NCBI GenBank assembly: GCA_964016885.1
Contig: OZ024750.1
Span: 10,478,001 to 10,542,000 of the forward strand
Length of the DNA stretch: 64,000 bases
Source of the DNA: Eledone cirrhosa
Taxonomy: Eukaryota
Reading direction: 5' to 3'
Positions 43,861 to 51,245 of the stretch are shown in pieces (within the stretch, counting starts at the first letter, position 1; each line of letters opens with the position of its first letter). Under the pieces are notes generated by a model. It was not told where the DNA came from. It saw only the letters and a program-made list of their open reading frames with translations, and made no database searches. The translations under genes were made by a program, and so were the position numbers.

Positions 43861-44065
43861 ATACATACATACATATGGTGGCTTCCAACTCGTTTTCGAG
43901 TACGGCCACTACTTTATATCCATGTAGGAGAACCCCCACCGATGCGCTGAATGAGTGTGACTTTTTAGTCCCGCCAGCGACTTGAAAACTCTGGTACAAA
44001 CACTACACCTGTGACAATTACTGACACATAGTGCTGGGCCCATGGTACCAATGTTGTTCAAGGGA

Positions 44066-45231
44066 AAGGCAATGGCCGATACAGCTTGACACTAGTGACA
44101 TTGTAACTCATTTCTACAAAGGCAATGGCCGATACAGCTTGACACTAGTGACATTGTAACTCATTTCTACAAAGGCAATGGCCGATACAGCTTGACACTA
44201 GTGACATTGTAACTCATTTCTACAAAGGCAATGGCCGATACAGCTTGACACCAGTGACATTGTAACTCATTTCTACAAAAGCAATGCCTGATACAGCTTG
44301 ACACCAGTGACATTGTAACTCATTTCTACAAAAGCAATGGCCGATACAGCTTGACACTAGTGACATTGTAACTCATTTCTACAAAGGCAATGGCCGATAC
44401 AGCTTGACACCAGTGACATTGTAACTCATTTCTACAAAAGCAATGCCTGACACAGCTTGACACCAGTGACATTGTAACTCATTTCTACAAAAGCAATGGC
44501 CGATACAGCTTGACACTAGTGACATTGTAACTCATTTCTACAAAGGCAATGGCCGATACAGCTTGACACCAGTGACATTGTAACTCATTTCTACAAAAGC
44601 AATGCCTGACACAGCTTGACACCAGTGACATTGTAACTCATTTCTACAAAAGCAATGGCCGATACAGCTTGACACTAGTGACATTGTAACTCATTTCTAC
44701 AAAGGCAATGGCCGATACAGCTTGACACCAGTGACATTGTAACTCATTTCTACAAAAGCAATGCCTGACACAGCTTGACACCAGTGACATTGTAACTCAT
44801 TTCTACAAAAGCAATGGCCGATACAGCTTGACACTAGTGACATTGTAACTCATTTCTACAAAGGCAATGGCCGATACAGCTTGACACTAGTGACATTGTA
44901 ACTCATTTCTACAAAGGCAATGGCCGATACAGCTTGACACCAGTGACATTGTAACTCATTTCTACAAAGGCAATGGCCGATACAGCTTGACACTAGTGAC
45001 ATTGTAACTCATTTCTACAAAGGCAATGGCCGATACAGCTTGACACCAGTGACATTGTAACTCATTTCTACAAAGGCAATGGCCGATACAGCTTGACACC
45101 AGTGACATTGTAACTCATTTCTACAAAGGCAATGGCCGATACAGCTTGACACTAGTGACATTGTAACTCATTTCTACAAAGGCAATGGCCGATACAGCTT
45201 GACACCAGTGACATTGTAACTCATTTCTACA
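44066..45231. repeat. 53-bp tandem array (22 units) amplified inside a minus-strand family 2 SINE
   Basis: Unit aaggcaatggccgatacagcttgacac(t/c)agtgacattgtaactcatttctaca with no spacers. It runs directly into the SINE body and head at 45232-45331. Confidence 0.95.
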
Positions 45232-45470
45232 GCTGAGTAACGTGAAATAAACAGCCTTGCTGAAAGACACAACGCAAAGAGAATTGAACTCACAACCTTT
45301 CGATTGCAAGCCCACCGTTCTAACCACTAAGACATACATACGTATATATATATATATATATATATAGCCATACATATATATATAGCCATACATACGTATA
45401 TAGCCATACATACGTATATGAATGTATATACATATATATATATACATATATATAGCCATACATACGTATA

Positions 45471-45523
<53 letters not shown>

Positions 45524-45734
45524 CCATACATACGAGTATGAATACACACACACATACACACACACACACACTGAGATGATGTATAAGAGCCATTTACTGT
45601 GAGGTCAAATAGAAGTGTCACATGAGCCTCCATAAGTCATCAGATGTTTGAAGATATCAGAACGATAGCGATAGCGTTTCTTCTGAATAATGTATGATGT
45701 CTCGGCTTGTTGATATCATAGTTGACGACCACCT

Positions 45735-46230
45735 AGACAACAACAACAGCTACTACGACAGCAGCTACTACGACTGCAGCTACAACAACAGCAGCTACAA
45801 CAACTACAACAACAACAGCTACAACGACAGCAGCTACAACGACAGCAGCTACTACGACAGCAGCTACAACGACAGCAGCTACAACAACTACAACAACAGC
45901 AGCTACAACAACTACAACAACAGCAGCTACAACAACTACAACAACAGCAGCTACAACAACAGCAGCTACAACAACTACAACAACAGCAGCTACAACAACT
46001 ACAACAACAGCAGCTACAACAACAGCAGCTACTACGACAGCAGCTACAACAACACCTACAACAACAACACCTGCAACAACAACTACAACAACAACAACAC
46101 CTACAACAACAACAACAACACCTACAACAACAACAACTACAACAACACCTACAACAACAACAACACCTCCAACAACAACAACAACAACACCTGCAACAAC
46201 AACAGTATCTACAACAACAACAACAACAAC
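45735..46230. repeat. AAC/AGC/TAC trinucleotide-based repeat
   Basis: Seen directly. It produces the N/S/Y and poly-C pseudo-ORFs. Confidence 0.9.
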
Positions 46231-46554
46231 TTAGCATGGTAAAGACGTAGACGTTGACGTTAATGGAGTTGATGATGATGATGGTGATGACAATGATTAC
46301 AACGATGATGATGTTTCTTTGTGTTGATTTTTTATTGCTAAAATTTAGCCCCAGGTTAGCATTGATCAAGCAAGCCTATGGTGAAAGGCGTTCCAGATTG
46401 GACCATCCTGACTTTTTAAGGGTATCTAAGTATCTAAGAATATATTATTTATTGCGTCGTTTCCCCTCTCCATGACTGTAAAGGTGTCAATAGGAGGCAT
46501 TAGTCGGTTATTTAACGACACCTCGTGATTGTATATCATGCTTCTATCAATGTT

Positions 46555-46600
<46 letters not shown>

Positions 46601-46624
46601 TGTGTGTCTGTGTGTGTGTGTATG

Positions 46625-46657
<33 letters not shown>

Positions 46658-47225
46658 CGATAAGAGAAGTGAGAAATACAACAACCAAGAACGAGATAAA
46701 TTATGGTAGAAGAAACTCTGATCATTAATCATTAATTCAATAAGACATCAAAGTTTTATGATAGCGTGCTGTGGTAGTGGTGGTAGTTTTGGTGGTTATA
46801 GTGTTGGTGGTAGTGGTGGTGGTGTTGGTAACGAGATAGTTGTTGTCGACGTAGTGGTGTTGGTGTGAATCTAGAAGAAATTATTAAGGAAACGGTGTTG
46901 CTTTGAATTTACCACATGTCTGTCTGTCTAAATCTGTTAGGCATCAGGTTCCACTAGCTTCGAAAGACTGTATGCTGTGTAGTGTTAATGTTGCTGCTTT
47001 CCTTCCTTCCTTCCTCTCTCGCTCTCTCTCTCTCTCTACACACACACACTATTATAAGAAAGTCATCGGAAATACCGATATATCTTCGACTGTATTCTCA
47101 CTCACCCAATGCTCTAATTAAGTCGGCATCATTAAGATACCAACCACAGAGGCAAGCAGAGTGCACTCTAATACGTTACATAGGGAGAGAAACGATTTCG
47201 TGTGGGCAGATTATATATATATATG

Positions 47226-47526
47226 TAATAATTGTTTCTACTTTTGGCACAAGGCCAGCAATTATCCACTGCATTACTGGTACTTTATTTTATCGATCGC
47301 GTAAGTATGTAATAATGGTTTCTTATATAGGCACAAGGCCAGTAATTTTTTTTTGGGGGGGGGGGGGAGGAAAGTCGATTAAATCGATCCCAGTGCGTGA
47401 CTGGTACTTTATTTTATCGACCCCATAAGGATGAAAGGCAAAGTTAAACTCGGCGGGATTTGAACTAAGATCATAAAGGACCGTAACTCTTTGCTGAAAA
47501 GCATGGCGTCCGACCCTCTACTGATA
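47226..47526 (-). mobile_element. SINE family 1 (one tail fragment plus one near-complete copy)
   Basis: Two ggcacaaggccag tails. Confidence 0.85.
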
Positions 47527-47685
47527 CGAATGGTTACTCCTTCATTTCGTTCATTGGTTGGTGACGCGCGTTTCGCTACTGATCAGTTCAAGGTTCGATC
47601 TGTATCGATCTAGCTTGCGTTACACCTGGATATATATATATATATATATATTGGAAAATGTGTGAGATCCTTGGTACAGTTAGGT

Positions 47686-47885
47686 ATATATATTTGAAAG
47701 AAAGGAAAAGAATGATTTCACTTGTAGTTCTAAATAAATAGATTTAATTTTTTAATTTTATAATATAATATTATGAATTGATAGATCTAGCAACTCATAA
47801 TATTATATTAGAAAATTAGAAAAATTAAATCAATTTGTTTAGAACTACAAGTGGTCATTCTTTTCCTTTCTTTCAAATATATATA
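47686..47885. repeat. AT-rich fold-back, ~95-bp arms
   Basis: tttgaaagaaaggaaaagaatga...cacttgtagttctaaa / tttagaactacaagtg...tcattcttttcctttctttcaaa. Confidence 0.85.
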
Positions 47886-47987
47886 TATATATATAACGAA
47901 GGAAATGTGGTAAGGAACCAGGTGGACCATAACGCACCAAAGTACTCAATACTTGAGGTAGTAGAGTGGGTAATAGGAACCAGTAAG

Positions 47988-48081
47988 ACCCCGACAGCTG
48001 AGCTCAAGCCGTTTCGACGGCTAATTCTGGACTAAATGAACATTTATCCTGGTATTTAAATAGCCGATCTTCTCAAGGGGT
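47988..48081 (-). ncRNA. Type I hammerhead ribozyme, U3-A8 core variant (family A, sense arm)
   Basis: Reverse complement of 48434-48527. Confidence 0.75.
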
Positions 48082-48433
48082 AATTCCATATATGGTCAAA
48101 GTGATTGTCAAAAATCAGTAGTAATTCTGTGGTTGCAAATTAGTAGGGGAGATGGTGGCTAAACCTGCTTTTCTTCACTCTCAGTATTTTTTCTTTCCTA
48201 TTTTTACCCCCCATTGTTCTACCTACCGTTCCGACTTCCTCCCCCTCCCCCTCCCCTGTATCTTCTTTGACCTCATGCCCAGCTGTAGCTGGCACTACCA
48301 ACGCTTGATTGGGTCTACTCCACCCCCTCCCCTCTTTCTCCTACTGGCAGGTTTAGCCACCATCTCCCCTACTAATTTGCAACCACAGAATTACTACTGA
48401 TTTTTGACAATCACTTTGACCATATATGGAATT

Positions 48434-48527
48434 ACCCCTTGAGAAGATCGGCTATTTAAATACCAGGATAAATGTTCATTTAGTCCAGAATTAGCCGTCG
48501 AAACGGCTTGAGCTCAGCTGTCGGGGT
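48434..48527 (+). ncRNA. Type I hammerhead ribozyme, U3-A8 core variant (family A, inverted arm)
   Basis: acccc-TTGAGAA-ga(t)cggcta...tagccgtc-GAA-Acggct-tgagctc-agctgT-C-ggggt. All three stems pair, and the triplet is GUC at 48520-48522. Confidence 0.75.
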
Positions 48528-48537
48528 CTTACTGGTT

Positions 48538-48587
<50 letters not shown>

Positions 48588-48989
48588 GAATAAATAATTC
48601 ATTAATAAAAAACAAACAATCATAAACAAATCTAATTAAAATAAAACACTACAGATATGGAAAATGAAGGGAGGGCAATGGTTCTAGGGGGCGGCGGTGT
48701 TGGGGCTTGATAAGAGCAAATCTTCTCAACTTGTTCGTTATTGATTATCAGTTAAAGCCTAAACAAATGTTTCTAGCGACTTTCCAACGCAGTCTTGATG
48801 TTAGACGATAAATCTCCGAGACCAATTTCCGTATCATTAAAAAGGGAAACTAAATGTTTCTTTTATTGAATTTCCATTCAACACACACACAGGGTCTCCT
48901 CCCCCAAAAATGTATGCACACTTCAACAGCATTCAAATAAATATTGCCTGTACAGGTAATTAAAGTGTGCATTCATTTTTTTGGAACAT

Positions 48990-49043
<54 letters not shown>

Positions 49044-49945
49044 AAGGGTCTCCCCGCCAAAAAATGTATGCACACTTCAACAGCATTCAAATAAATATTG
49101 CCTGTACAGGAAATCAAAGTGTGCATACATTTTTTTGGAACATCCTATATATATATATATATATATAATGTTTGTCATGAATAATTTTTGTCTTTTATCA
49201 AGTTTGTTTTTCATCACGTTTACGTTTAAGAAATTCTTGTCCCGTTTCTTTATAATCCAAATGCTTAGTCCTGAAATGATGTCCGTGCTTACCATGGAAT
49301 ATATTACTATTTTATCATTTTTTTTTCAAATACATAATACACAATAAGGTTAACGGTTATAAAACTAAGGAAAAATATTCAATAATACTTGCGTTTTATG
49401 TTGACAATCTCACCCGTTTTCTTGGGATTAGAATTAGTTACTTTCTGTTTTGCAGGTGTCTTCTTGGAGTCTGACCAGCCATCTGGCCAAAGCAACAATG
49501 TAAAATGGGAGCTGATTAATCGAGAAAGTGGTGTAAATAGCAATAGTATACATGTGTACGTTGCAGGCGGAAATACCGGTTATTTATGATATTGTCTAAC
49601 ATTAATAGGTCGGCGTGGTAGGAATGTCAAGTAAACGATTGGAATGATATCATCCACTTTCGGAAGAATATTTAAAAATCAATCAGTTTGAAGTTTAAAA
49701 TTTAACCAATATATATATTACTATGCACAATAACGTGACAGTTATCAGTCAATCAAATTATATTTTAAAGAAATCTTTTCGAAAACAGAAAGAACTTTCG
49801 AACTCCAGCTAGCTACGAGACAAACCACAATAGAAACACAAAACCCCCCATCTCAATTTTTACTTTTGAAAATCATAAGAACTGTGAAATCAGTAAACTA
49901 AATAAATATTCTTAAAAGATTCCAGTTGCATTTTTAATTTCTTTT

Positions 49946-49995
<50 letters not shown>

Positions 49996-50141
49996 GTTTA
50001 TAATTTGAAATATGTTTTATTAATTTTATATTTCCTATAATGCTGCAATAAAAATAATTTATTCCCAAAGTAATTTTAAAATGATCTTTATCACTATTAT
50101 TTTAAATTGATTGTCCTTTCGCGTCTCTCTCTCTATATATA

Positions 50142-50303
50142 TTATAAAGAATCGGGACCCGATGGCTGAGCTCTTGTTGAGATGGCAAGAACTCAACCGT
50201 CGGGTCCGGACCCCTTATAATATAGCCATACTCTACTCCCCCAAGTATCGAATACTCAGTTGAGTAAAGGTCTAACTAGTTTTAAACTGGTCCTACCCTG
50301 ATT
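50142..50303 (+). mobile_element. Diverged family A-related fold-back
   Basis: ggacccgatggctgagctcttg / caagaactcaaccgtcgggtcc, plus tail actctactcccccaagtatcgaatactc...ggtctaact. Confidence 0.7.
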
Positions 50304-50313
50304 TATATATATA

Positions 50314-50409
50314 CAGGGTGTCTCCAAAAATCTATACAAATTTTGATTATCTGTACAGGCAATACTTATTAGAATGCTGTTGAAATGTGTATACATTTTT
50401 AGGGACACC

Positions 50410-50412
<3 letters not shown>
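50314..50412. mobile_element. Tc1/mariner MITE, best-preserved copy with TA on both sides
   Basis: TA|cagggtgtct...gggacaccctg|TA. Confidence 0.85.
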
Positions 50413-50451
<39 letters not shown>

Positions 50452-50924
50452 TTATATATATATATATATATACACATGACTAAATTAATGTTGACTGTTT
50501 TATGGAATCGAGAGCATTGTTGATCCTGGAATTTTTCCGAGGAAATAAAGTATTTTTGAGGATTCCTCAAATACTTCCTCTGTTACAAAACGTTTCTACA
50601 TTTACGGACTTAATCTAGACTGACGCAGAGAAGACATTTCTTTATGTCTGACCATCATTTATTCTGTTGATTCCGTTCGAATTTAATCTTACTCAATTTA
50701 AAACTGTGCTATGAATGAATTACTAGCGTTGTAACGTGAATGAAATTGTCTAATTAGACACGGTGACAAACAAAAGCAGCCGTTAGTGAATTATATGTGT
50801 AAGTCTTTGATATCTTCGCTTTGAAATCACGTGTTTTCGTGTTCAATTTCACTTCTTGACTTTAGAGATGAGATTTTCCTGACTTGTTCCTGACTTGTTC
50901 TTGCACAAACAAGATATCAAAAAA

Positions 50925-51245
50925 ACATTTTGGACCTAGTGCATAGTATTGACACTATACTGACACTATACTCAATATTACAATGGAACAAACCCTTCTC
51001 TCAGATCACGACATGGTTCTCTGAAACCTGAGATACCACCAACCGAAAGCTAAACTCAACGACTTCTTTCCAGCCAACCCATTTGATAGCATGCATCTTT
51101 ATAATGCCAACTGGGATGCAATCACTAACAAGCTATCAGATGTTGACTGGTCTTTCACACACACATCTCCACCAACATCAAAACATCCTAGCAGATATTT
51201 GTAGATCCTGTTACAAACATATGTGCAACACATGCCTCCCTGAGA
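50925..51245 (+). mobile_element. CR1/Jockey-like LINE ORF2 remnant (end of APE endonuclease + linker)
   Basis: Reads ILDLVHS...LNITMEQTLLSDHDMVL...LYNANWDAITNKLSDVDWS, with stops and frameshifts. Confidence 0.65.

Follow-up and report, generated by a model that had tools for sequence, protein, structure and literature searches.

Two head-to-head 3' ends of an abundant repeat, each with a predicted type I hammerhead motif, in a TA run of the Eledone cirrhosa genome

Architecture of the insertion

The window (i.e., the whole stretch analyzed, 64,000 nucleotides of Eledone cirrhosa contig OZ024750.1, numbered from its first letter) consists of AT-rich, repeat-filled DNA of eukaryotic type. An insertion at 47895 to 48542 lies in a (TA)n target that flanks it on the left (47878 to 47895) and on the right (48540 to 48584). 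The longest perfect inverted repeat in the region from 47800 to 48700 measured 196 bp and forms the two arms of this insertion (47973 to 48168 and 48347 to 48542), with 178 bp between them. The left arm is the 3' end of an element in sense on the minus strand and alone carries a 78-bp 3' tail (47895 to 47972, minus strand), whose end is common to four other insertions in the window. The right arm, in sense on the plus strand, is tail-less and ends 20 nt past a predicted ribozyme cut; the tail-less arms of three other insertions end at the same base as at 48542. The preliminary description of this DNA had reported a perfect 196-bp fold-back with a hammerhead motif on each strand, and we recovered both the inverted repeat and the two motif copies.

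The 178-bp spacer (48169 to 48346, plus strand; C+T, 77% on that strand) is an upstream, pyrimidine-rich, non-coding part of the element that is contiguous in sense with the right arm, and the two ORFs scanned over it had no Pfam match. The joint 48168/48346 was present in the public data sets X24 (14 reads), X1, and X4, indicating that the spacer belongs to the element and runs in the same sense as the right arm. One contig of X16 and record 15 of X4 matched from 48166 and continued upstream into other sequence that was likewise rich in pyrimidines, pointing to a microhomology of 3 bp at the inversion junction (48166 to 48168); record 13 of X4 matched the arm up to 48168. The X16 contig (77 nt; depth, 2.1), the single one from an RNA run, was rejected as a sign of expression, given that it covers the spacer only and may be DNA.

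The arms showed no differences in 196 bp. At a rate derived from PMC13282606, this would bound the age of the insertion at about 2 My, a figure that gene conversion could bias. The same perfect match, together with an identity of 137/138 to the insertion at 25.1 kb, bears out the earlier view of the element as young.

Hammerhead motif

Folding and a descriptor scan placed a predicted type I hammerhead with an extended helix I in each arm, at 47976 to 48087 on the minus strand (copy 1; core, 48076 to 48070; predicted cut after C47993) and at 48428 to 48539 on the plus strand (copy 2). In the plus-strand copy, the core UUGAGAA (48439 to 48445; U3 and A8 in the usual register) and the GUC triplet (48520 to 48522; predicted cut after C48522, i.e., C17) are joined by stem I (48434 to 48438/48523 to 48527), an 8-bp stem II (48446 to 48454, with one bulged U/48492 to 48499) enclosing a 37-nt loop, the GAAA at 48500 to 48503, and a 6-bp stem III (48503 to 48508/48516 to 48521) with a palindromic loop. 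Past a 6-nt bulge, helix I is lengthened by six pairs (48428 to 48433/48534 to 48539) to 5 + 6 = 11 bp, and loop II is predicted to contain an 8-bp hairpin. These two additions make the motif larger than the preliminary description drew it, and its statement that the motif exceeds the minimal Penelope hammerheads holds for helices I, II, and III, all of which are extended. By eye, 5 bp could also form between loop II and the region of the helix I bulge, but base 47981 differs in 81% of the reads, and support for this pseudoknot was lacking.

The scan of both strands returned four matches, and the two strong ones (stem II of at least 7 bp, stem III of at least 5 bp, and stem I of at least 5 bp) were the two arm copies. 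There were 0 strong and 71 looser matches in 100 block-wise dinucleotide shuffles. The two arm motifs are one duplicated sequence and do not count as independent examples. Three helices surround the core and helix I is open, as in type I topology, and G12 A13 A14 A15.1, U16.1, H17, and G10.1-C11.1 are all present. The core departs from the strict consensus (C3 U4 G5 A6 N7 G8 A9) by U3 and A8 and fits the published U3-A8 variant only. The minimum-energy fold of 48425 to 48545 is the hammerhead, with a folding energy no better than that of shuffled sequences (z, -0.25). In line with the earlier statement that CUGANGA-based searches miss such a variant, Rfam passed over the motif: there was no hammerhead at gathering score in the window and none among the 22 local matches up to an E value of 10. 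Standard scans, Rfam included, can thus miss hammerheads in very abundant animal repeats.

Stem III was said to keep its pairing while its loop varies between copies. The loop quoted for the copies at 1777 and 6166 is indeed there, but the sixth pair of stem III is C.A in both, and their 5' half, with the core, is absent. In a 12-row alignment, stem III showed one-sided changes and no others. Pairs 1 to 4 were kept in all nine arms that span them, with the exception of the diverged insertion at 50 kb.

Family copies and half hammerheads

A family pattern matched nine times in the window and not once in 100 shuffles. A family pattern of 29 letters had no match in public collections of metagenome, prokaryote-genome, and viral contigs, which therefore yielded no flanking reverse transcriptase. 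The window holds seven insertions of the family, including the one at 47895 to 48542 and a diverged copy at 50.1 kb, and all seven adjoin TA or CA runs. Of the other six insertions, four are clear fold-backs, some with imperfect arms. The six all stop short of the UUGAGAA core, with seven of their arms beginning 8 to 22 nt upstream of G12 and the others further 3'. A small MITE-like element with imperfect inverted ends of about 19 bp (24853 to 25013) lies just left of the family copy at 25.0 kb.

Raw reads gave a similar picture on a larger scale. In X24, 23,032 of 12.5 million reads matched the element, and 3,444 raw reads had (TA)n directly past the tail-less end. On the basis of this match count and the density in the window, we estimate roughly 8 to 110 copies per Mb. 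The depth in X24 fell 39-fold within loop II, from 12,725 at 48007 to 48022 to 330 at 48039 to 48054, and the same drop was 17-fold in X1 and 10-fold in X4; RAD-seq bias and subfamily divergence of loop II (loose ends at 48037) may contribute to it. The depth at 48026 was 9,980, and 7,144 reads of X24 ended there; their loose ends were heterogeneous and agreed poorly. More than 90% of the copies are apparently without the core. Where family copies break off at their 5' side, short units are repeated (about 14 nt three times at 25108 to 25149; 10 nt twice at 2492 to 2511), which suggests template jumps recurring at loop II.

Polymorphism of the 3-8 pair

Positions 3 and 8 of the hammerhead are an established pair (PMC3884650). 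The natural U3-A8 form is not new: it was reported in 2011 by Perreault et al. (PMC3088659), and Schistosoma has about 1,300 U3-A8 motifs, also in opposite-strand pairs 100 to 700 bp apart (PMC4209133). The core as such is unsurprising to a specialist.

U is the majority letter at position 3, and C occurs in 17 to 39% across the three data sets, i.e., in 61 of 355 raw reads of X24, 25% of the depth of X1 (40 contigs), and 22.1 of 56.1 of the depth of X4. A change of A8 to G (position 48071) was found in neither X1 nor X4, each of which lists three T>C places, all elsewhere, and the five differences of X4 record 14 are likewise placed elsewhere than 48071. In these two data sets, C3 therefore occurs with A8. 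In X24, three of the seven T>C places are among the rows listed (40 of 88), and C3-G8 is possible in that run. The claim that U3-A8 is compensatory in this family is not sustained by a frequent C3 with no A8-to-G listed in X1 or X4, and the expectation that UUGAGAA is conserved in other long copies holds for the majority letter U3 but not for the common copies with C3 and an unchanged A8. In addition, A10.2 was replaced by C in 164 of 367 X24 reads. The case for the usual register and for the two inner pairs of helix II suffers from C3 with an unchanged A8 and from the change at 10.2. Among 56 aligned PLE-type hammerheads, U3-A8 is found in two and C3.A8 in none (PMC4209133). The variation points either to an impaired C3 lineage or to a reading of the core that is shifted by one base.

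Predicted activity and effect of the fold-back

The preliminary description called the ribozyme probably active; we consider measurable cleavage by the isolated motif slightly less likely than not. In its support, the rest of the core is intact, the triplet is GUC, the helices are stable, and helix III is palindromic. The palindrome makes a dimer with free cores possible: the dimer cofold was predicted at -64.5 kcal/mol, against -48.0 kcal/mol for two monomers (16.5 lower), with the cores unpaired. The activity of U3-A8 reportedly depends on context, to go by the title of a 2007 study by Przybilski and Hammann. In-vitro activity of U3-A8 is cited in PMC3088659, and mutagenesis of a type III hammerhead found rescue by a G3-C8 swap only, with U3-A8 not rescued (PMC9901934). 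Metazoan PLE hammerheads cleave poorly in vitro (PMC4209133), and eight of nine Xenopus retrozyme dimers tested did not cleave (bioRxiv 10.64898/2026.07.22.740005).

The probability of the hammerhead fold was about 0.47 in short contexts and 0.39 for the left arm with its tail, and it fell to 0.03 to 0.0008 with 80 to 260 nt of extra upstream sequence on the plus strand. The whole element folded as a long duplex (probability of the hammerhead, about 1e-101). The arms point outward, so a transcript from either flank would copy the antisense arm first. In such read-through RNA, the antisense arm is predicted to trap the ribozyme, likely blocking cutting at this locus, and only RNA that starts within the spacer (48169 to 48346) could be cut according to the model.

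Among the rows listed (six of seven), there was no pile-up of ends at the predicted cut (47992/47993), from which we infer that the RNAs had not been cut at this site, or had been joined again, when they were copied. This result also speaks for a relic, i.e., the same element with a core that has drifted from the canonical form and no longer cuts while the family spreads anyway. The frequency of C3.A8 and C10.2 variants among long copies, the predominance of copies that appear to lack the core, the proliferation of Naiad PLEs without canonical hammerheads (PMC8557442), and the uncleaved Xenopus dimers point the same way. Drift of this kind is harder to reconcile with U3 as the majority letter, with the retention of stem III pairs 1 to 4 in the spanning arms outside the diverged 50-kb insertion, and with the sequence changes among the rows listed (40 of 88), which all spare U4-A9, GAAA, the UC of the triplet, and the 3' side of stem I. 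We consider a relic unlikely.

The core polymorphism can also be accommodated by a shifted register (Y3-U4-G5-A6, no N7, G8-A9, and then the Penelope-typical extra nucleotide before G10.1). C3-G8 and U3.G8 both pair in this register, which would explain the C/U polymorphism and why 48071 is unchanged in X1 and X4 despite the presence of C3. The motif then equals the metazoan PLE consensus CUGANGAH-G less one base, and U3.G8 is natural in one of the 56 aligned PLE hammerheads (Saccoglossus 1; PMC4209133). However, N7 is absent in none of the 56, the usual reading has precedents there for the missing extra base (2/56) as well as for U3-A8, and an altered A6-N7 backbone is expected to be detrimental to the core (PMC3088659). 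On balance, the shifted register has a low probability. It is also rather improbable that a large hammerhead without N7 (YUGA-GA plus a bulged A) is active, that the C3 and U3 subfamilies both cut, and that the fold stalls the element's own reverse transcriptase (RT), seeding tens of thousands of half-hammerhead fold-backs. If this were true, the N7-less core would be a natural geometry hidden from CUGANGA and UUGANAA searches.

Probable assignment to Penelope-like elements

The region from 47895 to 48542 is likely a recent, truncated insertion of a probable Penelope-type element. No RT or GIY-YIG domain was found (0 such Pfam matches in 150 of the 405 filtered ORFs of the window), so the assignment to the PLEs is argued from architecture only. 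Insertions of endonuclease-bearing (EN+) PLEs are 5' truncated, have an inverted partner and a tail at one end, and favor (TA)n, and Penelope-13_HM has the same hammerhead on each strand (Craig et al. 2021; PMC8557442). The insertion studied here is 5' truncated with an inverted truncated partner, has a tail on one side only (78 bp, versus the 30 to 40 bp quoted for PLEs), and has a hammerhead near its 3' end (predicted cut, 98 nt from the tail end); all of the window insertions (7/7) lie at TA or CA runs.

The lack of coding sequence, the very many copies of 130 to 140 bp, the inverted arms, and the TA flanks would also suit a stand-alone non-autonomous element, i.e., a non-LTR retrozyme, a SINE-like repeat, or a fold-back DNA transposon (MITE). 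Against this, head-to-tail tandem units with a hammerhead were absent from 43900 to 51000, and the copies are dispersed. Fixed terminal inverted repeats were not found either: the inner ends vary, the arms are asymmetric and variable in length, and the tail is one-sided. Longer copies, moreover, continue upstream. We regard a stand-alone non-autonomous element as very improbable. An assembly or library artefact almost certainly does not account for the perfect fold-back: perfect arms can be chimeric and the 48168/48169 junction was spanned by none of the read or contig pieces listed, but fold-backs also make up four of the other insertions in the window and do not always have perfect arms, opposite-strand joints are present in raw reads, and the right arm stops at the recurrent tail-less end of the family.

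Proposed mechanism

The reading that we favor, and consider reasonably probable, is that two 3' ends of an abundant repeat lie head to head in a TA run, likely as a PLE insertion, each end with a predicted type I hammerhead and a likely U3-A8 pair. An autonomous copy elsewhere would supply RT and endonuclease, and the (TA)n run would be nicked. A first cDNA (274 nt) would run from the 3' tail of the RNA on through the uncut hammerhead, a second, tail-less cDNA (374 nt) would be made in the opposite direction, and the two would be joined at the 3-bp microhomology. In full-length tandem elements, the ribozyme may process precursor RNA, probably slowly or as a dimer with swapped helix III. At 47895 to 48542, it would be a passenger because read-through RNA copies the antisense arm first and would fold into a duplex of 196 bp. 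The majority of family copies end within loop II, a likely stall point of reverse transcription, and would consequently carry half a hammerhead.

Comparison with known systems

The closest likeness is to the pseudo-LTR hammerheads of metazoan PLEs (Cervera and De la Pena 2014; PMC4209133), including those of Schistosoma mansoni, which share the type I fold, the U3-A8 core, the long helix II with G10.1-C11.1, the palindromic helix III/loop 3, the opposite-strand pairs a few hundred base pairs apart, and the predominance of truncated copies. In contrast to those motifs, helix III here has 6 bp (1 to 4 bp or absent there), the core boxes are 54 nt apart, helix I continues beyond the 6-nt bulge, positions 9 and 10.1 have no additional base between them, and the C3.A8 variant is common. 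None of the 56 aligned motifs is from a cephalopod.

With Hydra-clade and other EN+ PLEs (PMC8557442), the insertion shares the preference for (TA)n, a hammerhead about 100 nt from the 3' end, a real helix III, the one-sided tail, and a 5'-truncated, inverted partner that bears a second hammerhead on the opposite strand. Those elements have canonical CUGANGA cores and small loops, unlike the UUGAGAA core and 78-bp tail found here. Identity with the octopus elements Naiad_Obim, Naiad_Ovul, and Hydra-1_oBim was rejected on the basis of differing 3' ends (Naiad) and a differing listed hammerhead (Hydra-1_oBim; PMC8557442). Five of six ten-mers of the element were absent from the supplement of that paper, and the sixth matched unrelated GC-rich sequence. 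The natural U3-A8 variants of Perreault et al. (PMC3088659) show the same covariation of positions 3 and 8 but were not described there for this element. Non-LTR retrozymes (PMC7229834; bioRxiv 10.64898/2026.07.22.740005) are also non-coding, with type I hammerheads, very high copy numbers, and a link to PLE ends. They are head-to-tail tandems with a short helix III, whereas the element here occurs as scattered fold-backs whose 5' ends vary.

A cephalopod PLE hammerhead of this form was not described in the literature searched (including the accessible parts of PMC7229834 and PMC6155905), which mostly excluded subscription papers. Within the same literature, each feature has a precedent, and their combination and the C3/U3 polymorphism have none. 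What is unusual is the size of the motif (extended helices I, II, and III) and this polymorphism, the latter being compatible with an N7-less shifted core. The value of the element lies in its hammerhead, which is of Penelope type, young, intact, and able to fold as a monomer, and which occurs naturally with either U3 or C3 in a single genome. The tolerance of the 3-8 pair and of N7 to variation can thereby be tested directly, as can the need of such elements for their own ribozyme, which is called unclear in PMC8557442.

Other features of the window

Two further kinds of hammerhead are present in the window. The one at 1631 to 1701 (plus strand) is a canonical CUGAUGA type I motif with a long helix II and a palindromic helix III; it adjoins a TA run and probably belongs to another Penelope-type family. 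A minimal CUGAAGA hammerhead of a third family occurs at 3813 to 3846 (plus strand) and at about 14480 to 14557 (minus strand), where the copy starts at U4 right after a TA run.

An 18-mer of a dispersed repeat, which we take to be an octopus SINE, is present eight times (at 14310, 17672, 27701, 27894, 47427, 60434, 60575, and 63583). A weak C2H2 zinc-finger match (43912 to 44091, minus strand; E = 0.001) is under the cut-off of Pfam, and a 53-bp unit is repeated in tandem 22 times (96% matches) at 44065 to 45231. Related repeats of about 100 bp, presumably Tc1/mariner-MITE-like, lie between TA runs at 48890 to 49150 and 50314 to 50412, the last with inverted ends.
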